Part shown: piece after piece, positions 1,529 to 58,330 of the stretch | Layout: each line of letters starts with the position of its first letter | Numbering within the stretch: position 1 is the first letter of the stretch | Origin: Rhizophagus irregularis | Taxonomy: Eukaryota | Length of the DNA stretch: 64,000 nt | NCBI RefSeq assembly: GCF_026210795.1 | Contig: NC_089433.1 | Coordinates: forward strand, 5,084,001-5,148,000 | Direction of reading: 5' to 3' | The notes under the pieces: model-generated | The model's database searches: none | Told to the model about the DNA's origin: nothing | What the model saw: only the letters and a program-made list of their open reading frames with translations | Made by a program: the position numbers and the translations under genes

Positions 1529-2779
1529 TCATCTATCGGTATGTGGCAGGTGCTGGTGACAACGTATTTTTCTGCTATTTATACCCAACTCATTTGATAG
1601 GATTCTAGAAGCGTTTATCTTTAATAGAGGTGTAATGTGATGAGTTTCACAATATGAAGTATATACCCTATAAAATTCTTGAACAGGTAGGTCATTTATA
1701 TGATTTTTTACTACAAGGTAAATGTCTTTTATGAATTGAAATAGGGGTGGAAGAGTCGAGATGATGTGATCCTGCTTAGATGCAGTCATAGGTAATGGAT
1801 TCCCATTGAAGTCTGGGTAAGCGTCTGCAATGGCTCTCAAGTAAGCATAGAATGCTTCACTGGCGCTTGGGTATTTCATAGCATCAAGTTTCTTAAAGTA
1901 GTTGAGGTCTCCCTTGCGGGATGGTGATACATCCAAGAATACTGTGCACCTATCGTCATTCTCCACTCTGAGAGCATTTTTATTGGTGAGTACAATGGTA
2001 AATATAAAGTTTTTGTAATGTGTTGGCGTCTTGTATTTTTCATGGATTTCCATTATGTCGCCTGTTACCTTATCCTTCAACGATCAATACAGATTATTCC
2101 ACTAGCTTTTTTCTGTAGGCATTTTCTCAAGAAGAAGAAGAACTTTACCCTGTAATTGCCCATTGAAACTTCCAAGAATCGTCTGAGGATTGCTGGTCTT
2201 ATAAACAAGTTGAGTACCTAAGACACTACGTTGAATGAAATCTGTTATAATACTCTTACCCCAACCCTGTCCGGATTTCAGGTAGAGAATCGAATACATT
2301 TTCCTTTTAGCAGACATACCAGCCAACCACTTTATGACATACTCAGTAAGATTCCAATCGCCTGAACACCAGATATCCTGAATGTGGAAGAAGATAAATT
2401 TAACCGCGAGGTGGGTTGTAGATTCAAAAGTGGATATCGGATGCAGGATATGGAGGAATCCTGGGAAGATATTGAGATAAAGTTGGCCACCTAGTTTAAA
2501 GATATGGGATTTTTGAGGGTCATAGGTAGCTACACATACAGTACTATATTCGATCATAAACCATTTGTTGATATTAAATTCAACCTTTTGTGAAGGACCC
2601 TGTTCGGATTGTGTGTAAAAGACTTTATTGGTAATTGGACGGATAAGTTTATTAATATTTTTATCAGAAATATGCTCGAGGTTCTTGATTTCTGACCGCC
2701 ACATAAAGACTCCATGCGGGTTGGAGCAGGGGATAAAGTAACTGCAAAAATAACATTTAGCTTGATCAAGGTCACTCAT
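1529..2779 (-). pseudogene. Disrupted D5-like / superfamily-3 helicase (primase-helicase C-terminal ATPase type)
   Basis: ORF 2102-2779 has Walker A KSGQGWGKS and a Walker B-like GKVLLLLEK. The continuation ORF 1529-2080 has motif C (IVLTNKNALRVENDDR) and a winged-helix-like tail (FYRVYTSYCE). The gene is broken by a stop/frameshift near 2080-2102, has no introns, and is visibly more GC-rich than its flanks. Confidence 0.8.
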
Positions 2780-3118
2780 ACTTTTAGCAGCGTTAATAAG
2801 CCATTTAAGCTCATCAATACTAAAAGCCTTCTTCTGTTCACCGAACTTGGGGATAACTTAAGCTTGAGTGCTAGTTTGGGCAGTCATTTTTTGCTCTATC
2901 AAATTGAGTACTAATTTATAGTTACCTAATCTTCAATTGCCGAATATTTTTTCCAAAGATCTGCTCCTACCTGGTTACCTCCTGTAATCCTGTGATCCTG
3001 CGGTTTTGCGGTCCTACAGTTATATCTGGTTATCTTCTAGGTGTAAAAAAAAACTATAAACCACAAACCTTTACGATTGCTCTAAATCTTTTCTTCCTCT
3101 TTTTCAATCCATATATAT

Positions 3119-8250: not shown

Positions 8251-11200
8251 TTGTTTTAATCAAATAGTTAAAATTAATATTTGTAAAAAGCAATTACTAT
8301 ACTCCACTTTATAAAAAATGTTGACTCTTATTTTATATCTCTATTTTTTCTATAAATGTACAATAACATTTGATGATATTTAACATATTCATTATTTTAT
8401 TTTTATTTTTATTTTCTTTTTAAAGTGAAGATTTAAAATTCTGTTTATTATATTATCATGTTTCAAAAATAAAAATTAAACTTATTGTTATTACAAAAAT
8501 TATACTGTATTTTACACCATACTCATCGTTATATTAGTAATATAAAGTTATAATTTTTTAATTTACTTGTTCTTTTTCTTTTCTCTTATTTTTTATTATA
8601 AAAATAATATTTCATCTATTTTAAAATATATTTATTTGGAGATTAGAGATTGACTGGATTGTTTTTTTCTTTAGCCGGTCTAAGCAAAAAACAAAAGTGA
8701 AGGTTACACAAGATGATAAATGAAGTTACACATATAGTAATAATGGAAGAAAGGGAAAAATGCCAAGCTCTGAGCAATCTTCACAAGAGTAATCAAGACA
8801 ACAACACGTCCTCAACACAGCACGCGAGTGACGAATGGTCACAACAACAACAAAGAGGGTACAAAACAGGTGGTGAAGCAGAAAAAGAAAATATACCCCA
8901 GAAACAAATGAACTAAAGGTTGAAGAGGGGGATTTTCAAAAAAATCAAGACAACATAGAAGAAGTAGTTGATTTATTGACAAGTGAAGAAAGTATTAATG
9001 TATTCTTAGCAAGACAAAGGCTAAGATTTGTTAAGGGGAAGTCGAACAAACAAGAGATGAAAGATTCAATGTTTTTAGAATTGAACATTGCAGCACACAA
9101 TATAAATGGGATTGCTAGTGTCCTGTCTATACAGAAACTTCATAACTTACTGGAATTCATTAATGAAAATAGTATCGATATTATGGCTATATCAGAAACT
9201 AATATAGACTATCGACAGGAATATTTTATAAACCAGGACATTAAGTCAAAAGTTTATTCAATAATTTTCAGTGAACGCGATCAAAAAACTAAAGGATCGG
9301 GAACGGCACTTGTGATCCATAACAGATGGATGAAGCATTATTACTCAGTAGTGCGCATATCCCCATATATCATAATAGCTAAATTCCTGTTCGTACAGAG
9401 AGAAATATGGGTATGGTCAATATACGCTGCTCCCAACGATCAAGACATGAGGAAAAGTTTGATCGAAGAGTTGAAAATGGTTATGGAGGGACATAACCGA
9501 TCAGTTCACAATACTGTAGTACTGCACGTTGTATTAGGCGATTTCAATGACATGATTAACAATAAAATAGATCGATCGCCCAGTACCAGACAACCAGGAT
9601 CTCAATTTCTAATACAATTATCGCAGTTAGGTCTTTATGATGTGTGCCGAGTTCTCTATCCGGATGCAGAGTTATTCACACATGAGAAATGGGATAAAAA
9701 CAAAAATAGATCAGCTTCTATCTCAAAATCAAGGATTGATCAAATCTGGATCACATATGAACCCGACGTGATTCCAGTAGAATTTTTGGTGCACTCATCA
9801 CAGATGACTACAAACAGTCACCATAGTATTATATCAACAACGCTAAATATATCAGGATTCATTAGGAATAATTTCCGGCATTGTGTCCCAGATCAATTAC
9901 AGGATCCAGATTTACATCAAGATAAACGTATAGTGGATATCAGTAAGATGACCAATGTGCAATGGAAAAATTTTACTGAAACACTAGATAGGGAAATAGA
10001 AGCATGGGACTTCCAACAACTAATAGAGGAAGTTAATTATGAAATACAATTAGGGGACGAAAAGAACACTGATGGAGATAGAAGTAATAAAACGTAGATT
10101 TAATGATCTTTGGGATAATATTATAAGTGCTATATCTATAGCGATGAATATAGAACTTCCCATGAAATTAGTTAAATATCCAGGAAGCCACAATACAAGA
10201 CATAAGTTATCATTTGCAGATAAAACTATGCGACATACTACTAGATTGGGAAGTTTAATTAGGAAAATCTGTAAAGATCAGGACTTTATTGCTGCCAAAG
10301 ATGCCCATTGGATAGATTATCGGCTGAACAGATTTAATAAATATAATGATGATTATAAAAGGAAAGAATACGATAAATTCATAGATAAGTATGAGGAAAT
10401 TATTATTCCTACACACAGCCTTTTTAGTAACACATGGATTAATATTGTTAAAGATGTAGTCAAAAAAAGAGTTAAAATAGACAAAAATTATTTACAAGCA
10501 CAACGTTTAAGCAAGATCTAAGATAGCATAGAAAAACGTTGCAATATTATACATTCGGATATTCCTAAGTAGCTACTTTCCACACAGGATGTTGTTAAGG
10601 AACATATTATTATTGATCGAGCAGTAATATCCAACAAGAATGAAAGTGTTAGACTAGCGCTTGATCCTAATACAATTAGAAACCATGCAAAAGATACTTT
10701 TGCAGGAATTTTACGAAAACGCAACACTAAACCAATAGAGAAAGACATTTTCTGGAGCAATATATATAGGCCAAAAGGTGAATTTACTGAGTGTATGGCT
10801 AATTTAATGGATGAAATAACGTTAGAAGAATGGCAACAAACACTTGAACAGGTGAACATAAACTTAGCGCCAGGTCCTTCAGGCATTGGATATACTATAA
10901 TCAAACACATTTCAGACAAATCCAGCTCCATTATATTAAAGATCATTAATTTGTCCCTAAAAATAGGAGTTGTGCCAGACCAATGGAAACAGTCACTTAT
11001 TCATCCGATTCCAAAACTGCAGAAATTTGATTATATTTTGGCCATCACGCGTCCTATAGCATTGCTAAATAATATCAGGAAATCTGTCACCAAATTATTA
11101 ACAAACCTTTTAAGTACAATTTTGACAAATAATAAAGTTTTACGTGGATTGAATTTTTGTGGTCTTAAGGGAGAAAACACAGCAATACCGTTACGTTTAA

Positions 11201-13118
11201 TGAATGATATAATTGAAGATGCAAGGGAAAATGGAAAAGAACTCTGGGTGGTAACCCAAGATATGATGAAAGCATACAATTCAGTTAGCCTAGAGAGCTT
11301 ACAGCTTGCACTAAGAAGGCTAGACATACTAGAAAAATTTATTTTATGGATTACAGGATTATTCAAAGATAGACAAATGAGCATAATTACAGCATTTGGC
11401 CCTAGCCCAACCTTCATAGGGGGGGACGGTATTGACCAGGGTGATGCGATTTCACCTTTACTCTGGAGAATTTTTTACGATCCTTTACTTGTAGCTATTC
11501 AACAAGCATGCAATCAACAACAAGGATATGAAATGGTAAACACTTGGCCATTGGATATTCAGGATCGATCAACATGGCAACAATATAGTCTAAGGGTACC
11601 AGTTATAGCGTATATGGATGATACGAGTTATTTGAATAGTTCAGGAGATAAAATTCAGGTATCAATTAATATAGCCACACAATTCTATCATTTCCATGAT
11701 GTAGATATAAATGGAAAAAAGTCTGAGCTGATGGTAATAAATCCTAAAGTGTCTAGAGATGAATTATATATAACTATTGGACGTGACAACTCAAAGGTTC
11801 AAGCTACAGATAAAGAGATACGGTATTTAGGATGTTATTTCTCTTCTTCCAATTTAAGGAAAAGATCAATCAAAAGAATCAAGGATATAATTGAAAAATT
11901 TTTGAATCCTATTAGAAGAAAATGTATTACAGTAGGACATATTGCATATCTTATTAATCACGTTCTTATCTCAAGAGTGGTTTATGTAGCCCAATTAATG
12001 ATATTATCAGAAAATGAATGGAATTTCTTGTTTACTCCAGTGATCAAATTAGTTAAGCAAATATGTGGGTTGCCTAGAAGTTATCCAACATTAGCAATAT
12101 ATCATCAATACATCTTAGAAATTAATAATCCATGGGATCAAATATGCGCAAATCAGATTACTGTTTTTTTATATCTAATAAATAGTAATTCACTAGCATC
12201 TAGATCTATAATGATAAGATGTAGGACTGCACAGTTGCGATTGGCTATACATGACAATATTTTTGAACATGATTCAGAATCATTATTTCTAGGACATCAA
12301 GAAGCAAAATCTAACCTAAGTTTACATAATATTATTATAGCCAGGAAATTAAACATTATCATACAACAAGATTACATAAATAGGTCAACATGGACCATTA
12401 GTAGTGGAAATATGCCTATTAGAGAAATATTTATAACACATAGATGCCTCAATTTATTACGGAAAATTGGAACTGCAAATTCATATCCACTTATATATGC
12501 TAGTCAATTGATGTTACCTTATGGACATATTATGAGTTGGGCATGTTATCGTTTCATTGCAGGACTATCAGCAAAAGGACGTATAGCCAAATGGTTTCAA
12601 TTATTAACCTGATGGATTAAAGGAATATCAGCACCAGAAATATCTAGACATTCCTTATTTAACTTTTTGAGCAATATATTACAACTGGTATCAGAAGACA
12701 AGCGAAAACACCCATATATTATAATAAAAGATAAAAACAATGAAGTTTCAGTAGGATTTGTTAAGAAAAGAACACAGATAAAGAAAAATGAGGAAAAAAT
12801 TGAATGTTTAATTATAGAAGTTTGTAATATTGAAATATGTCCAGATAATTCTCAAAAAGCAATTATTCAGAAACAGGAATGTCCCAAGATGATTACAATA
12901 ACTCAACATAGTGCATTAGTATTACCAATTTTTAATCGTTTATCAACAGGTGCAATTACACATATCGACTGGTATTATATAATGGAATCGTTAAATAGAA
13001 ATAAAAATATTTCAGCAAATAGTGACATACAACAATTGGAAAAAACACCTACAATTAATTTGAATGGAGATAATTTAGGTCTATGGATCAATTGATGGAT
13101 CGAGCAAGATACACTTAA

Positions 13119-14028
13119 TAATGCTTTGATCCGTGCACAGATAAAACTGCGGTATCCGGATATCTGGAAAAAAAATAGCTATCCGGATACTGTGGTTTTT
13201 ATCTGGATAAATATCTGGATAGAAAATATCCAGTTTGACCCATTATCCAGATAAAAAAAATTATAAAAAATTTTTTTTGTCATTTAAATTACTTATTTAT
13301 TGACATTATTATCTATTAAATTACCATTTATTAAAATCATAATCTATCTTACTAAAATTACTAGTAGAACATTCGATGGTCAATAATAATTCAGGCCATC
13401 TATAATGCCAGCCTGAATTTTGCGAAATTGCTTGATATTTGTCAAAAGGCAGCAGTTTCTGGCCCAGCTAAACAAAATTTGGGATTTTTGTAATTTTGGC
13501 CGAAATTATATGTTTGGCCCAAATTACTGTCAATACATGATTTAAAAAAAAAGATTTTTTCTAATAGATAGGTTGAATTGATTAATTTTAAGTACAAAAT
13601 AGTATAAATATAATAAAATAATTAGTTTATGCCTAATCTTCCATTATTTTACGATTTTACTGTATTTTTTATATTTGTAATAATGTATTTATTGCAAAAT
13701 TTTAAATTTTTCAAATTTTCAAAAAAATTGTCATAATTCAGGCAAAATTCGTAGTGCTGGCCAAAATTAAAATTTTATTTTATTTAAAATTAATAAAATA
13801 TTACTAATTTAGTTAAAAATATTAAGTCAAAATTTAATTAAGTTAATGCGACTGATATTATTTGTTAAGATCGATCAATGAAAAAAAAATTTTATATATA
13901 ATCTTATCTGGGTTTCAGTTTCTATCCGGATATATCTGGATTTATATTCGAACCGGATAATCTGGATAAAAACTGGATAATTTTTTTAATTTATCCGGAT
14001 AATGGTTTCTACCCGGATCGAAGCACTA
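13119..14028. mobile_element. hAT-like non-autonomous element (910 bp) inserted in the LINE ORF
   Basis: Imperfect TIR TAATGCTTTGATCCG / CGGATCGAAGCACTA; 8-bp TSD acacttaa / acatttaa; subterminal ATCCGGAT repeats. Removal rejoins WIEQD-TFKQELTNIR in frame. Confidence 0.9.
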
Positions 14029-15659
14029 ACATTTAAACAAGAACTTACAAATATAAGACATCAATTAAAGTCATTAAAAAACATTGAATATTATACAGAT
14101 GGATCACTAGCTAATTGGACTATAGATAATAACAACCTTTTATATAGAGCAGATAATACTACTGTGGATTTAGGGACAGCATTCTATACAAGTAATGAAT
14201 TAGGAGAATTTTCAGTATATTCATGTTTATCTTTATGGCCATCATCAACAAGGGCAGAAATAGTAGCTATTTTCTTGGCATTGTTGACAGCACCAGAAAA
14301 TTCTAATGTAACTATTTATACAGACAGCTTAGGTGCTATTAATTCAATTAATTCAGCTTTTAATTCAACTACTAGAACATGGCTTAAAAAGACCAATAAT
14401 CTAATCATTATCAAAATAATTATGCTGATCAGAGAAGCATCTATAAATTTAAAGTTGATTAAAATAAAGGGTCATAGTGGCATAATAGGCAATGATATAG
14501 CTGATAAATTAGCAAAGAAAGGACAATGTGGAAACAATTAATTTAGGAATAATGTAGATTTTATTAATAATATATTATCTTATTTTCCTGTTTTTATAGA
14601 TAAACCTATTGAAGTTAATATTAGAAGATTTATTTTGAAAATATTAGCTACAGGTGAAGCTACTGAATGGTCTTTGTTAAAAAATAATCAGGAATTATGT
14701 TATGGAGATGTTAATCAGATAGACTGGAAAATTACTTGGCTTATTTCCATTATTGCAAGGGGTTTCACTGCAATAGTATGAGAATTAACTATTTATGGAC
14801 TTTTATAGCAAAATTATTTCATAAAATTCTTCCATTAGGATCCATTTTAGCAATAAGAAAACCAAAACTCTACAAGGAAATGAAATGTATTATGAAATGT
14901 AATAAGAAAGAAAATTGGAATCATTTATTTGAATGTCAGGCATATGAGGTAGCTTGGCAAAAAATATTGGAAATTACAACAAAAGAATCTATAATTATAT
15001 GTTTGAAACAAAAACAAATTAGAAGTCAAGGGAAAGATTTTATTAAAAAAGTATTACAAAACATATTAGGAATTACAGCAAAGTCAGAAAAATTTCAAAA
15101 ATTCCAACAACTGGCATTAGAAGCAAGTAAAAGTTGAAACTTGTTTAACAATAAGATTACAAAAAGACTTCAAGATATCTCTTACTGAGGCACAGACACT
15201 TATGGCCAACATGTTAATTCGATTCATTCTAGCATTTAAAGAATTAATATGGAAACCAAGATGTGAACAAGTAATTTTATGGGAAAAAAGAGAAGGTATT
15301 TCTCGAACAGATAAAATTACTTCAGAATCCAAAGCAAAGAACAATCCAAATCAACTTTCAGAATTCAAAGTAAAGGACAATTCAAATCAACTTACAAATA
15401 AAGCTAAAGATTTAAAAATGGGAAAAGTAGATCAACTACAAAAAACAGTCTCTTTGGTAAAGAAATCTATGGATACCTTTGTAAGGAAATATATATGTGA
15501 GGATTGGATTCTGATAAAAAAGAAAGTTGATAAGATTACATTATATATGAGCGAAAAATTATTGGATTAATAGATACAAAAACAATATTTTTATTCTTTT
15601 CTCATTTATGTCTATTTTTATTTATAATCTTAGACATATAATTTATTAATTATTGTTAA

Positions 15660-15745: not shown

Positions 15746-16898
15746 TTGTTTATACTTTTAGATTATGGTATATTATTTTGCTATGCTTTTTGGTTACTTT
15801 TATTCTTAATTTTAATTTTATTGATAATATAATATCTAATGTTTGATCGGACTGGCCTGGAGCTGGAAGTATCATTCATAGAATATTTGTGATTATTATG
15901 TAGTCCAAATATATTCTAATAAAATGGTACATGATTCAACATTTTTTAAAAAAAAAAAAATTTACTTGTTATTCTATATTATTAGTAAGTCTAGCCAAAT
16001 TACTTTCATTAATATACTTACTAAGAAACAGTTTATATGTACGATTTTGGTATAATTAATATATATTATATTGCAATTGGAGGACAATTTATTTGCAAAT
16101 TGTGTTTATAATAATATTTTAGCAATATATAAATCCAAATAATCCTCAATGAATGTTATTATTTTAGAAAATATGTTATAATATACAATAAGTAAATATA
16201 AGTTATTTTATAGGTTATAAAAAAAAATGATCTACCAAATATAAATTACAAATTACAAATTTACAATTTATGAAAAATAAAAGGTGTAGCACATTGTGAA
16301 AATTTATATTCTAAATATCAAACACTGGTCAAATACTGGTGCTTTGTATAATTTGATCTTAAACTCTACATTTTATATAGTATATTTAAGCCTAATATTA
16401 AATATTTATACAGTTGATATTATTTTTTTTTATTTAATATCATTGCATTTTACTTAACACTAATTATAGAGTAAATGTAATTACTTTTTTACATAAATAA
16501 AATTAGTTTGTAATTAAATAATCAAATATAAATATAAGATGATTTGAAGAATAACTTACTTAATAGGCAATGTTAAACATACTGCAAATGTAAATATACT
16601 AGCAATTTTCATTTCTCTTTAAAAAACCTATTATTAGCAATTTATTACTAGTAATTATAATCTAGAAATTCATTTTCTTTCAATATAGTAAATTTTTTAT
16701 ATAAATATTTAAGTTATAATAAAATAAAAATGTATAAGAAATTATTGATGAAGAATATTCAAAAACATCATCATTCAGTAAGTATATTATTATATAATTC
16801 TTATTTTTTCTGTCAATAGAATTGTAAAAGTGTAACCTAAAATTTAATATTTATAGCTCCAAAAAAGCTGCTTTATTTGTATCATTGCATATGAGCTA

Positions 16899-16998: not shown

Positions 16999-19900
16999 CC
17001 GCCCCATGATTATATTTTAATCTGCATTGCATTGTACTGTATGACAAATTTATTGAGTAACAGTATTAGATTTATAACAATCATTGCATATTGTGTAATT
17101 ATTTGACACCTTCTCATTAATTAATGTCTATTGTTTTTTTTTTAATAAAAAACAAAAAACTTTAAACCATGACATCTCAAAATGATATTATATGTGTAAG
17201 CTGTGATAAAATATATATAGATATTGATTATAAATGGTGTAAACAATGTGTAATAAATAACTTAAAAAAAAATTTGATGAACTGGACTAGTGGAAATGAA
17301 AAGATTGATAATTTTATTCAAAAAATGCAATTAAAAATTGATAGTTTTGATGATATAATTGTTGAATGGATACCTTACAGCCAATTCAATAATGTTAAAA
17401 AAACAAACAAAGATGGTTTTGCTACAGCAATATGGAAGGATGGTTTATTAAAATATGATGAAAAAGAAATGAAACATAAAAGAATATCTAATATAGAAGT
17501 TTCTTTAAAATGCTTGAGCAATTCACAAAATGTTATTAATGAATTTTCAAATGAGGTATGAAGCTTCTATTTTTTTTGTAATTTAGTCTTAAAATACTTT
17601 TATTATAACAACTTTTTATATTAACAGGATAAAACATATTCCATTAAAGTAGATGAAGATGATGAAGATTATATTCCTAAAATATATGGAATATCCAAAA
17701 ATCCAGATACAAATGATTATATTATAGTACTTAATAATAGTTATTGCAAAGAATGTGGTGAAATATATACAAAAGTACAGAGAAAATGGTGTAAACCATG
17801 TCAAATAAATAATTTAGAACTAAATCTCACAAACTGGACTAGTGGAAATAAAATAATTGATGAATTCATTCAAGAAATGCAATTGAAAATTGAAGGATAT
17901 CATAATATAATTGTTGAATGGATACCTTATAACCAATTCAATAATGTTAAAAAAATAGGGAAAGATGGCTTTGCTAAAGCAATATGGAAGGATGGTTTAT
18001 TAAAATATAATGAAGAAGAAAGAAAATATGAAAGAAAACCTAATAAAGAAGTCACCTTAAAATGTTTGAATAATTCTCAAAATGTTATTAGTGACTTGCT
18101 AAATGAGGTATAAAACTTCTAATTTTTGTAATTTAATTCTTAAAGTACTTCATTATAACAATTTTTATATTTAACAACAGGCTAAAGTATATTTCCTTAG
18201 TCTTAAAATATATGATAATACTCCTACAATATATGGAATATCCCGAAATCCAGATACAAATGATTATATTATAGTACTTAATAATAGTTGTTGTAAAGAA
18301 TGTGGTGAAATATATACAGAGATAGATTGTAAATGGTGCAAACCATGTCAAACAAATAATTTAAAACAAAATTTTACAAACTGGACTAGTAGAAATGAAA
18401 AAATTGATGATTTCATTCAAAAAGTGCAATTAGAAATTGAAGGTTTTAGAGATATAATTTTTGAATGGATACATTATGACCAATTTAACATTATTAAAGA
18501 AGCAAGCTTTTCTAAAGCATATTTGGCAATATGGAAGGATGGTTCATTAGAATATAATTATAAAGAAATAAAATATGAAAGAAAACCTAATAAAGAAGTC
18601 ATTTTAAAATGCTTGAATAATTCTCAAAATGTTATTAGTGGCTTGCTAAATGAGGTATGAAACTTCTAATTTTGTAATTTAATCCTTTATCTACTTTATT
18701 TTAACAACATTTATATTTAACAGGTTAAAACATATTCCATTAAATTAAATTATGAATATGATATTCCTAAAATATATGGAATATCCCAAAATCCAGATAC
18801 AAAAGATTATATTATAGTACTTAATAATAATAGTTATTGCAAAGAATGTGGTGAAATATATACAGTAGTATGGCAAAAATGGTGTAAACCATGTCAAATA
18901 AATAATTTAAAACAAAATTTTACAAATTGGACTAGTGGAAATGAAAAAATTGATGATTTTATTCAAGAAATGCAATTGAAAATTGAAAGTATTGGAGATA
19001 TAATTGTTGAATGGATACCTTATAACCAATTCATTAATGTTAAAAAAATAGACAAAGATGGCTTTACAACAGCAATATGGAAGAATGGTTTATTGAAATA
19101 TAATGAAGAAGAAAGAAAATATGAAAGAAAACCTAATGAAACTACTTTAAAATGTTTAAATGATTCTCAAAATATTATTAGTGACTTGTTAAATGAGGTA
19201 TATATGAAACTTTTTATTTTTGTAATTTAATCCTTAAAAGTACTTTATTGTAACAACTTTTATATTTAACAGGTTAAAGCATATTCTACTAATTTAAATG
19301 AATCACATTGTATTCCTGTAATATATGGAATATCTCGAAATCCAGATACAAAAAATTATATTATAGTACTTAATAATAGTTATTGTAAAGAATGTGGTGA
19401 AATATATACAGAAGTATGGCAAAAATGGTGTAAACCATGTCAAATAAATAATTTAGAACTAAATCTCACAAAATGGACTAGTGGAAATAAAATAATTGAC
19501 GAATTCATCCAAGAAATGCAATTAAAAATTGATGAATATCACAATATAATTTTTGAATGGATACCTTATAACCAATTCAATAATGTTAAAAAAATAGGTA
19601 AAGATGGCTTTAATACAGCAATATGGAAGAATGGTTCATTAGAATATAATTGTAAACAAATAAAATATGAAAGAGGACCTAATAAAAAGGTCACTTTAAA
19701 AAGCTTGAATATTTCTCAAAATGTTATTGGTGACTTGCTAAATGAGGTATAAAACTTCTAATTTTTGTAATTAATCCTTAAAAGTACTTTCATTATAACA
19801 ACTTTTCATATTAATAGGTTAAAGCATATCAATATTCTATTGAAAGTGATGAAGATTATATTCCTAAAATATATGGAATATCCCAAAATCCAGATACAAA

Positions 19901-22900
19901 AAATTATATTATTGTACTTGAAAATAGTTATTGCAAAGCATGTGGTGAAATTTATACAGATATAGAAGCTAAATGGTGTAAACCATGTCAAATAAATGGT
20001 TTAAAACAAAATTTTATAAATTGGACTAGTGGGAATGAAAAAATTGACAATTTTATTCAAAAAATGCAATTAAAAATTAACAACCATAAAAATATAATTG
20101 TTGAATGGATACCAAATAACCAGCTTAATAGTATTAAAGAAATAGGTAAAGGTGGATTTGCTACAGTCTATTTAGCAATATGGAAAAATGGTCCATTAGG
20201 ATATGATAAATATAAAAAGGAATACAATAGAGTAACTAGTAATAAAGTAGTTGCTTTAAAATGCTTACATAATTCACAAAATATTACTAATGAATTTTTA
20301 AATGAGGTATGAAATTTATTTTTTTAGACTTCATTAAATACTTCTAAATAATAATTGTTTTACTTTTTGATAGGTTAATGCATACTCTATCAGTAGCTCT
20401 TTTAATGATCATTTTGGAATAGGTAATGATGGAATTCTCAAAATATATGGGATATCCCAAAATCCAGATACAAATAACTATATTATTGTACTTGAATATG
20501 CAAATGATGGAAATCTTAATAATTGCAATAATAATATCATTAGAAATTATCGTTGGAATGAAAAATTACATGTACTAAAAAAAATTGTTAAAGGTTTTAA
20601 AAAAATTCATGGAAATAATAAAGTACATCGTGATTTTCATACAGGAAATATATTGGTATCTGTTAGGGATTCCATTTATGGTAGCACTGGAAATTCTTCA
20701 AGTGATATATGTATTTCAGATATGGGATTATGTGGAGAAGTTAGTAATATGGACAAAACAAAAATTTATGGAGTTATGCCATTTGTAGCTCCTGAAGTAT
20801 TAAAAGGAAAACCATATACTCGAGCAGCAGATGTATATAGTTTTGCTATGATTATGTATTATATTGCAACTGGAAGACAACCTTTTGCAAATTGTGCTCA
20901 TGATAGTGTGTTAGCATTAAATATATGTAATGGAATTAGACCTGAAATAAATGAACTAGAAGCACCAAAATTTTATATTGATTTAATGAAAAATTGTTGG
21001 AATGCTGATCCAGAAAAGAGACCAAGTGCTATTGAAATAGAAAAACTGTTCAATGATTTTACTTATTCTAGTAAAGAAGAAATTAAAAAGCAAGTTGAAA
21101 AAGCAGATGAATATAGAAAAACAAATTTTTTGTCAACTGGAAATAGTCAATCAATTCATCCACAAGCTTGTTATACTTCTCGATTACTCAATCAATTTAC
21201 AAAAGAACTTCCAAAACATGATGATACTTACAGTATTTCAGCAGAAATTATTGATTTTACAGAGTATGTAGCATTACTTAAATTATTTTTTATTTTTATT
21301 GAAAATTTATTAAATTATAAATCATTTTATAGGTATTTTATCGAACAAAAATGAAAAATAAGTCAATTAGAACATGCATCTGCACCAAATAATATAAAAT
21401 ACATTTTATAAAAATTCATCTAAAAAAAAGTGATGAATATAAATATAGAAGGTGTAACACAATTGTGAAAACTCATCTTCTAACACTAAACTCCTTATGT
21501 TAGATAAGATGTGACAAATTTAACTAATATTAACTAGTAACACAATTTTATGATTAGGATTTTTTTTTTTTGTTGATATCATTGTATTTTGTTCAACACT
21601 AATTATAGAGTATATATATGTAATTTTTTTTTACATAAATAAAAAAATTTAGTTTGTAATTGAACAAATAAAATATAAGATTTGAAAATATTATTAACTG
21701 TTAATTTTATGATGATTAAAATTAAGAAGTAAGTTAATAATAAATATAATAAATATAAATATACTAGTAATTATCAATTTTTTTTTAAACCTGAATTATT
21801 ACTAATAGTAGCTTCAATAGTGTATTTATTGCTGATATTTTCTTTCAAAATAATATATGAAATATAACTGCATAATAGGAAAATTTCATCAAAGTTATTA
21901 TATGCTCAATTACAGATGAATATAGTGTCTCTTTATTAAAGATTAAGTTATGAAAATATTGTGACAATACTTATTAATGGAATGCAAGAAATTGATGCTG
22001 TAATTTATAGAAATATGGTATACAATTTAAAATATATAATTTTAATCTAGGCTAGGACTTTATCATTACTCTTGTCAAAAAAAAAGAATTTGTTAAACTC
22101 TCACCATACTATAGAATATTTACCTAGATTTTTCTTCTTTTACTGCTAATTAAGGGTAATAAATAAATATTTAATGACTATATTAATATGCTTTAAATTA
22201 TATAATATGTTTAATATGTTTATAAAATAGATTCATATATATATATCAACGTTTTTTTTTCAAGCATCTTTTCTTGGCAAGTTCCCTTTCTACGGTATTT
22301 ACTTAAAAAAAAACAGAGAAACTATAGTCCAGAAACCAATATGTTAACTTTCAACAGTATATATTAGCTTGGATTAAATTCAATAATAGAATAAAAAATT
22401 CAGCAAAATTTTCATTATAAGTATCTTTTTGTAAATGCTTACCATAATAAATATAAAATGATGCCGATTCAGATAATTTGGAAGCGAATGTACTTTGTAC
22501 AGACAAAAAAAATATGTATTTTGAGAATTAAGTTATTTAAATTGATAGATAAATTACACAAATTAATACATAATTTCATACACAATATCTTTGATGTGTT
22601 TATTATAATATCAAATAAGAGTATAGTAACATAGAAATATGTTTATAAACTCATGACTAATTAGATAAAATTAGCTAGGTCAAAACGAATCTACAACTAA
22701 AGTGATTTCTAACGATACTAAAAAAAAATTATTATTAATATAAAGGAGCTAAAATTTCACTATATTTTAAAATTTGAATAGTAAAATTTGCCTAACCAAC
22801 AATAAAATTATAATCACTTAAATTTCTTTAAAATATTATAGGAAAAAAAAGAAATAAATTTATATCAAGCAAAGTTTTTACTTTTGGAAAATTTTTCATT

Positions 22901-27819: not shown

Positions 27820-28790
27820 TTCAAAACTTTTCTAGGATCTGGTAAAAAAAGTTTCAAAATGAAACTTTTCAAAACTCACTGATCCAAATCCAAGTCTAAG
27901 ATCGGAGACAATGGTATCTAAAAAAAAACAAAAAAAAAATAAATATTTTTTTAATTAAAAAAAAAGTTCTGAAGCAAAACTTTTCAAAACTTACTGTTAC
28001 CGATCCAATTCTAAAAATCGGAATCAATAGCTGATAGTGCCTAAAAAAACAGAAAAAAAAATTAAATAGTATTTTTTTTAAATATTAAAAAAAAGGTTCA
28101 AAACGAAACTTTTCAAAATTTACCGTTACTAATTCAAATCCAAGGGAACTGATAGTACCTAAAAAACAAAGAAAAAAAAAGTTAAAAAATATTTAAAAAA
28201 GTTTTGAAGCTAAGCTCTTCAAAACTTACCATTACCGATCTAAAGTTCAAATTCAAAGATCAGAGCTGATGTACCTAAAAAACAAAGAAAATAAAATTAA
28301 ATATATTATTTTTTAAAAAAAAATAAAGTTTCAAAAGTTAAGCTTACTGATCCAAAATTCATATTAAAGTCCAGGATCGTTCCTAAAAAAATTTGAAAAT
28401 GGAACGTTAGTAATGCCTACTAATGTTTCTAATTTAAAAAAATCCTGCCCTTCTTTATTTACCTTCTAAAATGTTTTGTCAGTTTTGAAGCGTCTTAAGA
28501 GTCCTACAATAAAAAAAAAAGTAATGGAACATTAGTAATATCAACTAATGTTCCTAATTTTAAAAAACACCCTCCCCCTCCTTTATTTACCTTTCAAAAT
28601 GTTTCATCAATTTCAAAGCGTCTTGAGGGTTGCTACAATAAAAAAAAGAATTGGAACATTAGTAATGTCTACTAATGTTCCTAATTTAAAAAAAAATCCC
28701 CTTCCCTTCTTTAATTACCTTCTGAGACGTTCTGTTAGTTCTGTGTCTGAAAGGTTAATAAAAAAAAATCTTTTTTTTTTTATAAAAAAA
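27820..28790 (-). other. Tandem array of micro-exon + intron units, apparently non-coding
   Basis: About 8 units of 110-135 bp. On the minus strand each reads polypyrimidine-(T/G)TAG | 35-55 nt | GTAAGT/GTGAGT/GTAAAT, and several have a TACTAA branch motif. Confidence 0.6.
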
Positions 28791-28826
28791 AAGATCATGA
28801 TCTGATAATCTGTTATTCATCAGACT

Positions 28827-30143
28827 AGGATCTCAGAAAATGCTTATATATGTAAGGTACCAAGGTGCTTAGCCAACATAGTAAAGTTTTATGATGTAAG
28901 AATTTTATAATGCTTAATTTTAAGAAAATTTTATACTATGTAAGATAATTAAATTGCATATTTTTGGTATTATTTTAAAATACTAAGAGTTTTTAGTTGC
29001 TTATTTTTCATATTTATATAACTTTTTAAAATATTATATATTGAATTTATAATTAATTTTTATTTTATTTTCACTAACGGTAAGTGTTAATTTTGTACTA
29101 CATTTCACAATTTTATATAAATACATAAACAAAAATTTTTTTTTGATGAAATTTCATTTTTTTTTTCAATGTTTTATTAATTATCTGTCAATAGTATCTT
29201 TTTAATTTTTATTAAACTCGTATTATTTTTAATATAAAATTACTATATTATACATGTTTATTTTGTTAGATAAAATTACTATCATAAATATGTTTTACTT
29301 TAAAATATAATTTCACTACTCACCACTTTGGTTATATCAAATTATCTTTTATGCTTAAGTAAGTTTGTTCAGCAAGTTAAATCTACTTGTATTTTAATTT
29401 TCATATGGCTAAATATGATATTTATATAGAAAAGCATATTTTTTTTAACGGTAATAACATTTAAATTTTTCACTTTTTCGTTTATAATTTCAGAGCGTAA
29501 TTACACCACTTCAGTCAAATGAATTCAACTTTCTAAATTAATTGAAGTTGTTCAGCAAGGTCGAAACTACTTATATATTAATTTTCATGAGTGTGGGTAT
29601 AATACTTATGGAAAAAAGTGCATTTTTCATAACGGTACTAACTTCTGAATTTTTCATTTCTTTGTTTACAACTTCAGAGCGTAATTACACCTCTTTGGTC
29701 AAATGAAATCGACTTTCTAAATTAATTGATAATTGTTCAGCAAGGTCGAAACTACCACATATTAATTTTTATGGGTGTAAGTATAATACTTATGGAGAAA
29801 GTTACATTTTTTGTAATAGTATTAATTTCGAATTTTTCTTTTATTGTTTATTAACATTATTAATTGAATATTGTTAATCTACTTGTATATTATGTTTAGT
29901 TTAGCTTCACAACATATTTAAAATTGGATTTAATAAAATATATTAATTAATAAATATATTTTATAAATTATATGTGTTATAATAAAAATTCAATTAGGTT
30001 AGAAGATTGATTTGCTTATTTTTATATAATTTTTAAAGTTAGATATCAACAATGCTTAGCGATCATAGTAAAAACCTATGCTTAGAGCTACTAATAAAAA
30101 TATTTTTGGGACCTTACCTATATAAGTATTTTCCGGGGGTCCT
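28827..30143. mobile_element. Non-autonomous TIR element (AGGA-ended family), 1.3 kb
   Basis: About 35-bp imperfect TIR aggatctcagaaaatgcttatatatgtaaggtacc / gggaccttacctatataagtattttccgggggtcct; degenerate 8-bp flanks atcagact / atacgact. Confidence 0.7.
29290..29830 (+). repeat. About 180-bp tandem repeat, 3 copies, inside the TIR element
   Basis: ttgttcagcaag..aaactac/aatctac recurs at about 29365, 29548 and 29733. Confidence 0.8.
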
Positions 30144-30309
30144 ATACGACTTATCGGATCATGTGATCTATCTGATACAATAAGAAAAAACTACACTATT
30201 CATGGAAAATATAAATAATTCAGTAAATTCCATGATATAAGGTAAAATTAAAAAATCAGAACAAATGTTCTGATAAATTTTTGCATACACATACAGATAT
30301 GCAATTAAA

Positions 30310-31005
30310 GTTTCAAAGTTAAAACTTTGGAATTCTAGTATCCAAATCGGAACCGATTTTTCTACAAAAAGAGAAAAAAATATTAAAAAATGTTTTTTTT
30401 TTAAATTTTGTAGTTTTGAAGTAACAAAGTAACAAAACTTCGAAACATCAGGATTCTGGTATCCAAATCGGAACTGATTTTCCTAAAAAAAAAGAAAAAA
30501 AATGGTATTTAAAGCGCGTTAAAATAACGTTTTTTTAATAGTTTTGAAAAAATTATTTGAAACTAACCTATGGGACTCAGTACCCAAGTCAGAACTGATT
30601 TCCTACAAAAGAAATAAAAAAACGTTAAATAATGTTTTTTTTAATAGTTTCAAAAAAATTATTCAAAACTAACCTATGGGATTCGGTATCCAAGTCGGAA
30701 CTGATTCCCTACAAAAGAAATAAAAAAAATGTTAAAGTAACGTTTTTTTTAAAAAACATTTCAAAGTTTTAAAAAAAAAACTTTGAAACTTTGGGATTCC
30801 GGTTTCCAACTTTGGAACCGATTTTCCTATAATAAAATAAAAAAAGAAAAGTTTCAAATTGAAACTTTCTTTTTGGGATCGGTTTCCAACTTCAGAACCA
30901 TTTTCCTACAATAAAATAAAAAAAATGTTTATTAACATTTTTTTAATAGTTTCGAAAAAAAAATTTTGAAACTAACCTATGGGATTTGGTATTCAACTTG
31001 GAGCC
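30310..31005 (-). repeat. About 120-bp tandem micro-exon/intron-like units (about 6-7 copies)
   Basis: Repeated ggattc(t/c)ggtatccaa(a/g)tcggaac(t/c)gatttt-cctacaaaa. The minus strand reads ttaac..ttttcttttgtag | exon | gttagt. Confidence 0.75.
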
Positions 31006-31007
31006 GA

Positions 31008-34000
31008 CACATGATTTCTTTTTCTTGAATCTTTAATTGAACGTCTGAAATTTATTAAAAATTTCATTACTTTATATGCATTAGATATTTTCATTGGGTT
31101 GACTTGACTTTTAGTTAATTTGATTTTTTCTATTGGAATACAATTTTTACTAGCTTGAATAAGACCTTTTTTGATCTTATTCCATATATGATTAATATTA
31201 TTTTTATTGTTAAAATTAAATTTTAAAATTTCTGAATTTGAAATGTATTTATTAAGATCATTCTGAAATAATTCCCATTGCTCTCCATCCATTTTATCAT
31301 ACTTATAAACTTCTTTAAATCCTTCCTTCCGTTTGATATTAGCAATATTTCCAATCAAATCTTCTGACCATATTGAATACACTAACATTCTATGATCAGT
31401 ATTAATTGTTGTTGTATTAATAATTTTGCATTCTTGTGTTTCTGAAAATAAATTTTCTGTTACCCAAATGTAATCTATTCTAGAAGGATTTTGATTTGTA
31501 TTAAAAGGATAGAAAGTATTTAAGGAATGTTGTGATAAATTATCGAACATGATATATAAAGGATCATAAAAATTTTGTTCATTTTCAATCCATTCAAAAT
31601 GTTTATGTTCTTTTTTCATTTTACGATTATTACAGATATTTTTCATAATGAAGATTAAAATTACCAAGAAGAATAATTTCTGCATTTTGTGCTTTACTTT
31701 CTCTAACCAATTCTTTGATTTTATCAAAATAAATTTTAACTTCTTGATTAAAATTGTTTAAAGTAACTCGTCCAGATTTTCCATAATAATTAATGATTCT
31801 CATTTTTTTATTTCCACTAAAAATAAAATCAACATATATAATTCTTTCTTTGAAGCTATTATAATTGACTATATGCCATGCATAATTTTTCTTAATAATA
31901 AGACCTATACCATTTCCCCTATAATTAGTTTCCTCATTTGCAAAATAAGTAACATAATTATTTCTATAAAAATTAAAAGAATGTTTTGCCATTTTGTTCG
32001 ATATATTAGTTTCTGATAGACCCAAAATAGTTATATTATATTCACCTAATATATCAATTAAGAATTGTTTTTTAACATCAGTTATACCTTTAATATTCAA
32101 TGAAGCTATTTTAATTATATCTGATAAATTGAGTTGTTGACGTGTTTTCGAACGATAAATTTGTTGATTATTTAAATTTGAACGTGATTTTTGATTAACA
32201 GGGGAAGGATTATTATAATGTTTTTTCTTAAAAGAATGTGTTTTTTTATTGTTCATCATTAAAGATAATATTTAAAGGAGTATTTAATCCTCATGGGATT
32301 CATTATTGTCAATAATTTTATCCCCTTGAAAATTATTAACGTCATTATTATTGTCAGAAGTAAAATATTCCATAATTTTTGAGATATTTTTACTCATAGT
32401 TGATAAAGCATCACCGAATCTATTAATTTCATTATTTTCAGTTGTTTGTTTAAACTATTTTCTATATCTGAAGATCCTGAGGCTTCAAGTTGTTCATTAT
32501 CAACTCTTGATCTTTTATTATTCTCATTTTGTAAGGCGATTATACTTCTATCTTGATTGACTTTAATATTTTTTCCTGAACTTGTTGTAGACTTGTTTTC
32601 TTTATATTTATAAAATTCAGATTTAATACGATAGTTTTCTTGTTGGATTTTTTTGAAATCATTAGCTAATTTATTCAAATTCTCATTAAGTTGTTTAATT
32701 TGCGTGAAAATTCCTGATCATGTGACTTTTCATTAACGTTATTATTTCTATCACGTGAAATATTTTTATTCCAATATCTATTAATATTTCCATTATTATA
32801 TTTAGAATAATTATTTGAATTATTACTTTGCTGACATTTTTCAAATGAATTTTGTTTTGTTACATTTGCATAACTGCCTTTTTTAAACTTCTTGTTATTT
32901 TCTTGACGAAACTCCTTAAGCTTTTGCTTTCTATTCATTACACGTGGTTTAGCAGATAGTTCAATATCACACTTACTAATTAAATGATCAAAGGAACTAC
33001 ATCTATAGCATGATTTTTCACCTGGAGTTCCCCAATGAAGCGTTCTATTACAAAAAATAATATTTCTTTCTGCTGCAATACCTATATCTTCATCATTTTC
33101 ATAATAAACTATTGCATAATTCAATGGTTTATTATTATTTGGATTACGTGGTATAAAAATATACTTAGGATTGTTAACTTCTAAAGCTTCATGTATATCA
33201 TAAGCAGTTGAATTCCATGGTAATCCAGTTAATTTAACTGTATACATTGATCTTTTTTCTATTTCATCTTCTGACAAAATTTTTGGCACAATAAGTACTT
33301 GATGTTTTCCAATCCATTCTGACCATATGCCTTTGTAAAATTTTTGTAGACTTTCTTCTTTTTTATATGTAATGAAAGCTTGAATATATAAATTTCTAAT
33401 TTTGGTATAAAAGCCATTTTCTTCTATTTCACCATATTTGTTAAATACAGCTCTAATTTGATAATTAGGAATTTCAATTGGAATATTTATAACTTTAATC
33501 GTTCTGCAATTTCTATCTTTAATTTCTTCTTCAGTAAAAACTTTTTTAGTTTTTTGATATGGTGTAAATTTTATTATTTCCTTAACCTTACTATTAGTAC
33601 TTGATTCTGCATCTTCACCATTTTCATGTAACTGTTCATCATCGATAATATCAATTTCTAGATTAATAATTTTATCATAATCATTTTTCATGATTGGTAA
33701 AATGATAAATTCAGGTTCTTTCTTATTTAAGATAACTCCTCCGGCCAGAGTAACATTAATTCCAGCTAGTTGTTTTCTCAAATTAAACTTTTTTTGAATA
33801 ATATTGTTTCCTGGAATAGAATCTTTTTTGATTTTAACTAAAATAGGTTTAGCCTTATTAAAAATTTCTGAATGATTATCACTAATTATGTCATTAGTAT
33901 CACCATTTTTCTGATTATCCTTATTAAAAGATTGATCATTTGTTTGATTATCAATTTTTCCATTGTCAACGATCATTTCATCATTTTTTTCACCATCAAT

Positions 34001-34535
34001 TGGTGCATCTGGATTTTCTGGTATTACTTGATTATCTGTATTGGATTTTGCTGCGCTACTGCTTTCAGATGAAGGAGCAAAAGTATCTTGACTAATATCC
34101 ATATCATCAGTAGTTTTTTCAGTAGATTTATGTTGCCTAAAAGACAAACGAGGTTGTTTTTTCTGTTGTTTTTGTTCAACTTGTTTTTCTTTATCTTTTC
34201 TTTTAGTTTTACGAGAACTTGCAGGTTGCCAATCCTGAATAATAGGATTGATATTGAAGACTGGTTTATGTATCAAGTCTTGAAGAGTTTGCTGTTGTCC
34301 TGTTTTGTTAACTTCTTTATCTTGTTGCTGTCTTGTACTTGACCAAGTAGCGTGGACCCTAGGTTGCGACCCTGACATCTCGAACAAGTTAAAACCTAAT
34401 AAACTTACTCTTAAAATTGAACTTTTTTCTTTAAAAATTCTGCAGTAAAAATGGTCTTGAATACAAAGAAGAAGAAGTTTTGTCTTTTATTAATAGCTAT
34501 ATAGCTATAGTATAAGATTCAATTACGAAGTTCAC
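31008..34535 (-). mobile_element. LINE 5' half: ORF1 (RRM-like domains + zinc knuckle) and ORF2 endonuclease; truncated before RT
   Basis: ORF1 32675-34387 has RRM-like segments (TIKVINIP..FNKYGEI..QAFITY; TVKLTGLP..YAIVYY) and CYRCSSFDHLISKC. ORF2 from 32259 has LNIKG, LSETN, LLGNFN, SRIDYIW and TDH, with a frameshift near 31630. It ends abruptly at about 31008. Confidence 0.9.
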
Positions 34536-39100: not shown

Positions 39101-39273
39101 GATCAGGACCCAGAAATATATATATAGGGGTTTACTATAAGCTGTACGCATTTTTTCAGGGCCGGAATTATGATAATGCCAGTTGGTTACTATAATAGGA
39201 AATAAAGTCTGACTGGCATTATCAAAAATTATCTAAAAAAAGAAAGATTTTCATGACTTTTTTAGTTCAAAAT

Positions 39274-39485
39274 AGGACCCCGAAATATACATAAAAGGAT
39301 CAGGTCAGAGTTTGCGTATAATGAGTCAAAAAATCATGTAGATCATTCCTTTTATGGATAATCCCAGCCAAAATAATATTTCCTAATTTAGATAATGGCT
39401 GAAATTATCGTAATTCCGGCCCTGAAAGAATGTGTATTTTGGACCACTTCTGGACCTGACCTCTACATATATATTTCGGGGTCCT
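39274..39485. mobile_element. 212-bp MITE (AGGAC-ended family) inserted into an older copy of the same family (about 39105-39511)
   Basis: TIR AGGACCCCGAAATATA / TATATTTCGGGGTCCT; perfect 8-bp TSD ttcaaaat (39266-39273 and 39486-39493). The host copy starts aggacccagaaatata at 39105 in the opposite orientation. Confidence 0.88.
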
Positions 39486-46095: not shown

Positions 46096-46502
46096 AGGAC
46101 TCAGAAATAAATATATAGGGGTCAGGTGGTGAAAAAAATTTTACTATGAGCTGTACACATTTTTTCAGGGCCGGAATTATGATAATGTCAGCCGGTTACT
46201 CTAATGGGAAATGAATTTCTGAATGGTACTATCAAAATTATCTAAAAAAGGAAAGATTTTCATAATTTTTTTAGTAACCTTTATACAGTCAGCCCCCTTT
46301 ATAGTCACACCCCTCGGGACCGAAAAAAAAGGGTGTGATTATAAAAAAAGTCATATGTTGTGACTATAGAGGAGGTTTTTCTAATATATTTATTAGTACA
46401 TTGGGCCAAAATATGGTGTGCTTATAAAGGGGAATTTTATATGTTGTGATTATATGGGGGTGACTATATAGGGGGTCGACTGTATATATATTTCTGAGTC
46501 CT
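46096..46502. mobile_element. AGGAC-ended MITE in kinase intron 1
   Basis: TIR AGGACTCAGAAATA / TATTTCTGAGTCCT; perfect 8-bp TSD aatttagt. The paralogous intron at about 17575-17595 shows the empty site (tttgtaatttagtctta). Confidence 0.93.
46286..46482. mobile_element. Tc1/mariner-like MITE nested in the previous element
   Basis: TIR CAGTCAGCCCCCT..TATAGTCAC / GTGACTATA..AGGGGGTCGACTG, flanked by TA. Confidence 0.8.
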
Positions 46503-53011: not shown

Positions 53012-53222
53012 TACTACCGAAATACATATGTAAAGGTCAAGTGATTTCAGAAAATTATATTTTCCAGAGCCGAAATTATGCTATCCTCGTCATCAGTTAC
53101 TAAAATAGGTGATAAAATTTTGACCGGCATTATCTAAAGAAATTATCTAAAAAGGAAAGATCTACCCGATTCTTTTGGTTCAGAAATACGCATACTCGCT
53201 ACCTTATACATTTTTGGGTCCT
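53012..53222. mobile_element. Degenerate copy of the AGGAC MITE family
   Basis: Shares gccgaaattatg, aattatctaaaaaggaaagat and terminal tttttgggtcct with the 39105 and 46096 copies. Confidence 0.65.
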
Positions 53223-57300: not shown

Positions 57301-57452
57301 TAACCCTTATCCAATACTAGCAGTACACTGAGGGCTTATAGAAGGGTTATTAACCCTTATCCAATACCAGTAGTACACTGGAGGGCTTATAGAAGGGTTA
57401 TTAACCCTTATTCAATACCAGTAGTACACTGGAGGGTTTATAGAAGGGTTAT
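57301..57452 (+). repeat. About 51-bp tandem repeat, 3 copies
   Basis: taacccttatccaatac(t/c)ag(c/t)agtacactg(g)agggcttatagaagggttat repeated three times. Confidence 0.9.
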
Positions 57453-57958
57453 TAGATCAACATAAGTCTTAGTTGAAACATTTAGCTATTCTCATTAAAT
57501 TTTATTTTATATAGAAAATGACCAAGGATATCACAAAAAAATTACTCAAAACTTTTATCTACCAACACCAGATAAATTTCAAGAAACAACAAATACTTTC
57601 ATGGAATGAATATCTGAAGACTTTATAAAAAGATTTAAAAGGGTATCTTTTTACAAATAAACTTCATTTTTTTTCTAAAGAAACTTAGTAAAAGAAATGA
57701 ATGGAAAGACTGTCTTTGTGACTGTCTTTTTGCAAGAAAAAGAAGGATTTTTTACAATTGAATGATAAGGATTTATTGGGAAAACAATAACAAAATTACG
57801 ACTTAAACAATTACAAAGCAGATTTTGGATAGAAAATAGTATAGTTGTCAATTTCCTTTCAACAATGGTTTTTATAAAAAATTGTTTTATAAGAAAAATT
57901 ATTGTTATTGGATTTTAGAAAATATTAAAAAATAATAATATAGAAATTTTAAAAAAGA

Positions 57959-58330
57959 ATTAAAAGATACTTTTTTAAATATACTTTACCATCACCAAGG
58001 CTATTGAGATATATAGAAGTAGCCTTTATTAATATAAAGAAGGATTTTTTAAAATAAAATTAAAAGATGCTTTTTTAAATATATTTTACCATCACCAAGG
58101 CTATTGAGATATATAGAAGTAGCCTTTATTAAGATAAAGAAGGATTTTTTAAAATAAAATTAAAAGATGCTTTTTTAAATATACATTACCATCACCAAGG
58201 CTATTGAGATATATAGAAGTAGCCTTTATTAAGATAAAGAAGGATTTTTTAAAATAAAATTAAAAGATACTTTTTTAAATACATTTTTTTCATCACCTAG
58301 GCTACTGAAATATATAGAAGTAGCCCTTAT
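57959..58330 (+). repeat. 100-bp tandem repeat, about 3.7 copies
   Basis: taaaagat(a/g)cttttttaaat..catcaccaaggctattgagatatatagaagtagcc at 57961, 58061, 58161 and 58261. Confidence 0.92.

Follow-up and report, generated by a model that had tools for sequence, protein, structure and literature searches.

Protein kinases that carry a catalytically dead kinase copy in cis, upstream of the active domain, include the JAK proteins (JH2-JH1) and the tandem kinases of plants, and in both groups the pseudokinase is kept complete and bilobal. Fungal NLRs such as HET-E, with its WD40 repeats, offer an analogy of another kind, as they couple internal repeats of variable number to a signalling domain. In the wheat tandem kinase RWT4, according to the available portions of the published account, an N-terminal partial kinase duplication (KDup) is required for effector binding (10.1101/2024.04.30.591956; PMC13478195). 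For Glomeromycota, an expansion of PF07714 (TKL-type) kinases is described in the accessible parts of four papers (PMC3886924, PMC6123716, PMC8647823, PMC10234402), which there concern gene number and make no mention of internal repeats of the N-terminal kinase lobe (N-lobe). Here we analyse a stretch of 64,000 nucleotides from Rhizophagus irregularis (NC_089433.1, positions 5,084,001 to 5,148,000; hereafter the window, in whose own numbering all positions are given) and within it the gene OCT59_025637, here called gene A, which occupies 17169-21354 on the forward (+) strand and has 8 exons encoding 1229 amino acids (aa). In its protein, six units of ~157 aa, each made up of a four-cysteine (Cys4) knuckle, two helices and a complete kinase N-lobe, precede a single C-terminal lobe (C-lobe). 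We find that this N-lobe array architecture is real, spliced, selected and, in the family of gene A, widespread across three orders of Glomeromycota.

As with KDup in the available text on RWT4, an active kinase is preceded in cis by a partial copy of its own N-terminal region, activity being predicted in the case of gene A. However, the KDup described there is a single copy that ends before the active-site Lys, in a protein that also holds a full pseudokinase, whereas here the whole N-lobe as far as strand beta5 is repeated together with a Cys4/helical extension, in up to ~14 copies, in a fungal host and with no second full kinase. By analogy, the gene A protein would work out as an amplified, fungal and independently evolved version of the KDup idea. 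It also resembles the pseudokinase-kinase tandems in placing catalytically dead copies in cis upstream of a kinase, although these copies are N-lobes only, are numerous and lack a C-lobe; plant tandem kinases are defined by two full kinase or pseudokinase domains, and gene A has a single C-lobe, its homologues never more than one. The terminal module with its C-lobe is itself one of the expanded PF07714 kinases of Glomeromycota, and single-module relatives exist. Unlike fungal NLRs, the array proteins lack NACHT and NB-ARC (no Pfam match to either in nine window segments or nine homologues), their repeats share 55-82% identity instead of being near-identical, and the indication of positive selection is only weak. 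Judged from its sequence, the gene A protein is neither a tandem kinase, a pseudokinase nor an NLR by the features that define these groups. Database labels of array proteins read only kinase-domain or uncharacterised protein. No Pfam family matches the repeat unit: single exons yield sub-threshold zinc-ribbon and other short matches, and in multi-module proteins BCS1_N, Zn_ribbon_NOB1 and a few short others pass the cut-off only as summed weak repeated stretches. Our literature search, outside which lay subscription journals and supplements, likewise returned no description of N-lobe arrays. The array thus appears undescribed as an architecture, as the first-pass annotation of the sequence had supposed, apart from the single-copy precedent of RWT4 KDup in plants, and there is a case for treating the module as a new repeat-domain family.

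The window has a base composition of 26% GC, and between 17166 and 20312 it contains six long open frames with repeated motifs, after which the kinase frame follows. To assess splicing, contigs or reads from four of 24 listed runs were compared with the window; X1 consists of assembled contigs of presumed RNA origin, with 38 of 44 aligned records at least 99% identical to the window. The parts of gene A, with the evidence for each, are the following.

17169-21354, + strand: gene A, six modules of Cys4, helix and N-lobe plus one kinase C-lobe (spliced frame, contig joints, annotated protein)
17187-17732, + strand: module 1, non-catalytic, spanning intron 17556-17627 (junction in X1)
17739-18279, + strand: module 2, non-catalytic, spanning intron 18108-18180 (junction in X1 and X2)
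18286-18822, + strand: module 3, the most diverged upstream module, spanning intron 18655-18723 (junction in X1 and X2; unbroken X1 contig 18260-18599)
18832-19371, + strand: module 4, spanning intron 19198-19272 (junction in X1 and X2)
19378-19919, + strand: module 5, spanning intron 19747-19817 (junction in X1)
19926-20493, + strand: module 6, the true N-lobe of the kinase, spanning intron 20307-20373 (sequence; unbroken X1 contig 19872-20294)
20494-21263, + strand: kinase C-lobe and tail, with HRDFHTGN at 20626, DMG at 20719, and APE (PF07714, motif positions)
21264-21332, + strand: seventh intron, 69 nt, GT-AG (joint 21263-21333 in X1 and X2)
21333-21354, + strand: final coding exon and stop (contig joints, spliced frame)

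The six module-bearing exons (17169-17555, 17628-18107, 18181-18654, 18724-19197, 19273-19746 and 19818-20306) each have a length divisible by 3, lie in phase 0 and end in AATGAG directly before the GT of the intron, and the introns between modules are mutually homologous GT-AG introns of 67-75 nt. Once spliced, the reading frame is free of stops over ~3.7 kb. A structural unit runs from the Cys4 motif to helix alphaC and then across the intron to the YIIVL of the following exon, and because the intron falls within alphaC, exons and structural modules are out of register. That each module is completed by the strands at the start of the next exon (KIYGIS..PDT..YIIVL; more generally YGIS..P.T..YIIVL) had been proposed earlier and is confirmed in the spliced frame, with one C-lobe in total. 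The modules of gene A are 55-82% identical in pairwise comparison, and an identity of 55-88% among modules excludes a chance origin of the repeats. The first-pass annotation was right about the place and number of the modules (six at 17169..20306, + strand), although the gene extends to 21354 and the seventh intron had been missed. The repeated motifs that it described are present, but the Cys4 spacing is CxxC-x10-WCxxC (in nine of nine window modules) rather than x9, and their uniformity is approximate, module 3 having NWTSRN and EWIHY, modules 4-6 AIWKNG and module 5 LKSL.

The last long exon matches Pfam PF07714 with an E value of 4e-31 (108.6 bits against a cut-off of 23.1), and the annotated protein of gene A, P0045, scores 125.7 bits against the same family. 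Its catalytic motif set is complete (GKGGF, VALK, NE, HRDFHTGN, DMG and APE), and gene A is a protein kinase of the PF07714/TKL type whose single, C-terminal kinase is predicted to be active. The Gly-rich loop IGKGGFATVY is confined to module 6, as had been noted from the start, and modules 1-5 are three residues shorter over loop and strand; in module 6 the loop lies at 20142-20171, the beta3 Lys at 20259-20261 and the alphaC Glu at 20304-20306.

Five of the six inter-module introns of gene A are joined in assembled reads, which bears out most of the splicing originally proposed. For the first five, single X1 contigs skip exactly 72, 73, 69, 75 and 71 nt with GT..AG ends, and X2 reproduces three of these five joints. 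Two raw poly(A) runs, X21 and X22, match the window mostly at 90-99% identity, so they represent mainly paralogs or another strain and add little. P0045 equals gene A except for four additional in-frame introns in the public model, which drop the pieces 17238-17411, ~18325-18423, ~18883-19050 and ~19980-20147 from modules 1, 3, 4 and 6, respectively. These removals could be taken to mean that the array is an artefact of assembly or gene modelling, or that its modules are mostly spliced out, and X1 does lack depth at 17214-17370, inside one of the four introns, although such holes prove nothing. However, X1 contigs that are unbroken and free of differences (18260-18599 and 19872-20294) traverse two of the four additional introns, five junctions are joined, the modules within gene A share a mere 55-82% identity, and like arrays occur in proteins of several species. 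We therefore regard an artefact as highly improbable. As two of the P0045 introns are crossed by unbroken contigs, the public annotation likely under-reports full modules across the family.

Structure predictions were made for two relatives, P0052 and P0126, standing in for the spliced window protein. P0052 has four modules and a C-lobe, its best stretch being 84% identical to exon 4, and its AlphaFold2 model (mean predicted local distance difference test score, pLDDT, 84.6; predicted template modelling score, pTM, 0.66) has the same order of secondary-structure elements in each module. Its kinase part matches BRAF, RIPK1/2, JAK and CTR1, with JAK as the top full-length Foldseek row. For P0126, which is free of a C-lobe, the model has a pLDDT of 90, with a pTM of 0.75 for two modules. 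Foldseek returned 84 matches to it at E of at most 0.001, all of them kinase N-lobes (best MET, E 4.5e-5), and superposition on RIPK2 residues 8-97 gave 2.2 A over 80 residues with Z 7.5, a middling value for the comparison tool (below 8); all 50 rows listed are kinases. Exon 6 compared by sequence with solved structures gave nothing significant (best E 0.088). The upstream modules are thus predicted to adopt the kinase N-lobe fold, a five-stranded sheet with alphaC, and the module as a whole a zinc knuckle, two helices and this N-lobe; the Cys4 knuckle lies outside the range matched by the fold comparison. In the models, the Cys4 knuckle of the following module is placed after beta5, where the hinge and C-lobe would be expected to start. 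The earlier proposal that the N-terminal extension and the whole N-lobe are reiterated while the C-lobe occurs once agrees with the sequence and with this predicted fold.

The same predictions could be read differently. RAF- and RIPK-type kinases are regulated via N-lobe and dimer contacts, and the array might be purely internal in its role, a semi-rigid regulatory or structural stack that recognises no outside ligand and serves to autoinhibit the kinase, to space it or to make it oligomerise. The pTM values, 0.75 for the two-module model and 0.66 for the one with four modules and a kinase, suggest that the modules pack against each other in a defined way. We consider this stack rather unlikely, for reasons that come from the family and from the variability of its modules. 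Full (classical) pseudokinases were considered as an identity for the repeats and rejected: the upstream modules have no C-lobe, and none of 120 homologues has two full C-lobes. A membrane receptor was rejected as well, as a 19-residue window with hydropathy above 1.8 occurs in just 4 of 120 long homologues.

The homologue search used one internal exon of gene A as its query and gave 1029 candidates, and 749 proteins of 278-2000 aa were matched. The best 120 of these 749 are all named Rhizophagus or Glomus, and by a hidden Markov model of the module each contains 3-14 full modules, so that the variation in module number between genes foreseen in the first-pass annotation is evident. A full C-lobe is matched once in 82 of them, never in 38 and twice in none. 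Apart from C-terminal tails, these 120 long homologues contain no stretch of at least 90 aa without an assigned domain. Among shorter relatives, 48 of 120 have the simple form of one module motif and a C-lobe. Such a range of copy numbers, with units both with and without Cys4, is more in keeping with a modular binder than with a tuned regulator, and so counts against an autoregulatory stack.

A search of cluster representatives gave 2337 matches at E of at most 0.001, and the 20 representatives identified belong to Acaulospora morrowiae (5), Ambispora leptoticha (1), Diversispora epigaea (1), Glomus cerebriforme (1) and Rhizophagus (12). The Acaulospora and Ambispora proteins have the same layout, their upstream modules lacking the Gly loop and mostly the beta3 Lys, with the framework retained over up to ~10 copies; in the Diversispora protein, a young duplication has left two copies that both retain an intact Gly loop. 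In a quick tree of 79 modules, built from 127 columns with no more than three upstream modules taken from any gene and with many of its forks open, the upstream modules cluster with the catalytic module of their own lineage (support 99 for the Acaulospora clade, 91 for Ambispora), and the well-supported branches require at least three changes of state. This topology fits repeated origin or continual renewal alike. In a distinct clade (support 97), P0472, P0421, P0483 and P0437 make up a Glomeraceae subfamily of their own, whose separate array of upstream-type modules is possibly a further independent origin. No true allelic orthologue of gene A from another isolate was found among the proteins searched, the next best C-lobe identity being 81%. 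A metagenome scan yielded 30 short loci, mostly ~1 kb and below the length needed for array counts. The Atlas search with P0126 matched only unnamed Mucoromycota kinase clusters, and with the Ambispora modules it gave no usable non-kinase match by features.

Which residues the modules keep was determined in the 82 homologues with a C-lobe (72 terminal, 464 internal and 72 first modules; 303 modules of C-lobe-less proteins were excluded). A GGF-type loop is present in 71 of 72 terminal modules, 10 of 464 internal and none of the 72 first modules; taken together, the Gly-rich loop is found in 71/72 terminal versus 10/536 upstream modules. The [VI]ALK motif declines less steeply (69/72 terminal, 126/464 internal, 20/72 first). 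The EWIPY-type motif (62/72, 417/464 and 64/72, in the same order) and the YGISQ-type motif (70/72, 399/464 and 65/72) are retained throughout. Of the 72 C-lobes, 71 keep HxD..N, 70 keep DxG and 53 have HRD proper. Entropy rises most in upstream modules at the Gly loop, the beta2 Val, the Ala of AxK, the alphaC Glu and its neighbours, and the gatekeeper position, column labels that we assigned from general kinase knowledge. The upstream copies have thus selectively lost ATP-site residues and retained the framework. Polar framework residues are kept in ~90% of cases in internal modules, which would also suit an autoregulatory stack, although the upstream modules are more variable than the terminal ones (mean column entropy 1.79 against 1.32 bit), and this speaks against it.

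The Cys4 motif is found in 54 of 72 terminal, 307 of 464 internal and 45 of 72 first modules, being missing in about one-third of family modules, and is predicted to form a zinc knuckle, a putative metal site (similarity to Zn_ribbon_NOB1 is weak). It is essentially absent from 13 of the 82 C-lobe-bearing genes, and short units without it exist. The core repeat is therefore helices plus N-lobe, and Cys4 was rejected as an obligatory part of the unit; of the earlier picture of a Zn-ribbon with an isolated N-lobe, the N-lobe is supported by the predicted fold of the relatives and the ribbon is dispensable.

Selection was examined with a codon model (our own script) on the nine window modules, the column classes being taken from ~500 distant modules. 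Core columns have an omega of 0.19-0.20 (p < 1e-11), intermediate columns ~0.75 and variable columns 1.39-1.55 (p 0.005-0.03), the last falling to a marginal 1.37-1.48 (p 0.02-0.06) when gap-adjacent columns are removed. Purifying selection on the module framework is solid, and the modules are not decaying neutrally, as the first-pass annotation had implied. Positive selection on the variable columns is only suggested, because these columns were chosen for variability, gene conversion was ignored and CpG is depleted (observed/expected 0.14 in gene A).

Elsewhere in the window, two features concern a relative of gene A.

45674-48605, + strand: paralog B, three modules followed by a C-lobe; a one-base frameshift lies near 48066 (sequence comparison with gene A)
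46096-46502, no strand assigned: inverted-repeat element of 407 bp in intron 1 of paralog B (sequence)

The module count of paralog B is as first described, but a one-base deletion directly after its DMG motif (~48066) shifts the frame relative to gene A, which is a pseudogene lesion or an assembly error and weakens it as an example of number variation. The duplication common to A and B reaches ~1.5 kb beyond the stop. A segment 5' of gene A (16347-16531) resembles the 3' flank of paralog B (48798-49000; 75% over 204 bp), which suggests a further gene copy that has been lost. The element at 46096-46502 resembles a miniature inverted-repeat transposable element, with terminal inverted repeats of ~20 bp and an 8-bp target duplication, which we take to suggest the hAT class; partial relatives lie near 39105-39436 and 53060-53179. 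Directly upstream of gene A, at 8877-15570 (+), is a broken retroelement like a long interspersed nuclear element (LINE), with endonuclease-, reverse-transcriptase- and RNase H-like frames, and at 30996-34486 (-) another LINE-like element has an RRM/zinc-knuckle-like first open reading frame (ORF1) and an endonuclease-like frame. Frames at 1532-2857 (-) look like a viral-type primase/helicase or origin-binding protein; like those of both retroelements, they were recognised by eye. The window also has several tandem arrays of non-coding sequence (periods 51-184 bp), at 27844-30752 and 57301-58331.

With one of two neighbouring copies broken, the array might be a tolerated by-product, its symmetric exons duplicated by unequal crossover within a repeat-rich and methylated gene family and retained only since they are foldable and harmless. 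In-frame gain is easy with phase 0-0 exons and homologous introns, internal modules are more alike within a gene than between genes (0.63 versus 0.51), omega in the non-core columns is 0.75-1.5, and kinase genes of this fungus are high in copy number and methylated above core genes, according to the accessible part of one study (PMC8647823). Nevertheless, arrays persist in three orders, and in Acaulospora and Ambispora the framework is kept over those ~10 copies in spite of the lost beta3 Lys. Moreover, gene A is spliced with an open frame of 3.7 kb, and the loss of constraint is concentrated at ATP-site columns. A by-product is consequently unlikely in our estimation.

The reading that we prefer is that the spare N-lobes form a non-catalytic, variable-length binding or decoy array controlling one kinase, a proposal for which we see an even balance of probability. 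Under this proposal, a single unequal crossover would have attached the beginning of the Cys4 extension to the end of beta5 and created a symmetric phase 0-0 exon, by virtue of which module gain or loss stays in frame. The duplication process may have begun more than once, or may be continually renewed from the catalytic module. The orphan N-lobes would be kept as cytosolic binding units that mimic the N-lobes of the very large kinase family of the fungus, and could capture proteins aimed at kinases, whether regulators of the fungus itself or effectors that come from endobacteria, viruses or mycoparasites. Such binding to the array might then cluster or release the terminal kinase. More tentatively, and with somewhat less confidence than doubt, we suggest that in arbuscular mycorrhizal (AM) fungi the kinase N-lobe became, on several independent occasions, a repeat domain that stands alone, the arrays being a diversified intracellular receptor or decoy repertoire for attackers or regulators of the kinome, with one kinase output.

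Several observations weigh against the binding array. The sixth junction (20306/20374) is not among the joints listed (15 of 39), and no contig spans the whole array. The RIPK2 superposition is middling, 38 of the 120 homologue models have no full C-lobe (these being partly truncated or decayed models), and the neighbouring paralog carries a frameshift. Whole-module pairwise dN/dS is 0.36-1.24, omega above 1 rests on nine modules and on columns preselected as variable in relatives and is marginal without the gap-adjacent ones, and the variable columns hold many N, K, D and E residues, the outcome of drift in an AT-rich genome. Even the core omega of ~0.2 could result from selection against misfolding alone.

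The architecture itself holds regardless of function, and current annotation misses or mis-splices the array. A count of 2,533 kinase genes is given in the accessible part of one report (PMC10234402), and among the thousands of kinase genes of mycorrhizal fungi, to which no purpose has been assigned, a sizeable subset represents a defined, spliced and selected N-lobe repeat architecture, not mere copy-number expansion. For kinase biologists, it provides a natural stand-alone N-lobe. Small and with a good predicted fold, the modules can serve as baits, and they offer a concrete way into the question of why kinases are so numerous in these fungi. If the modules bind foreign proteins, they would be candidates for a system of non-self recognition in a symbiont that matters to crops, and if the arrays are a receptor repertoire, they would be a fungal counterpart of the tandem-kinase immune receptors of plants, built from a unit long assumed to depend on the C-lobe.

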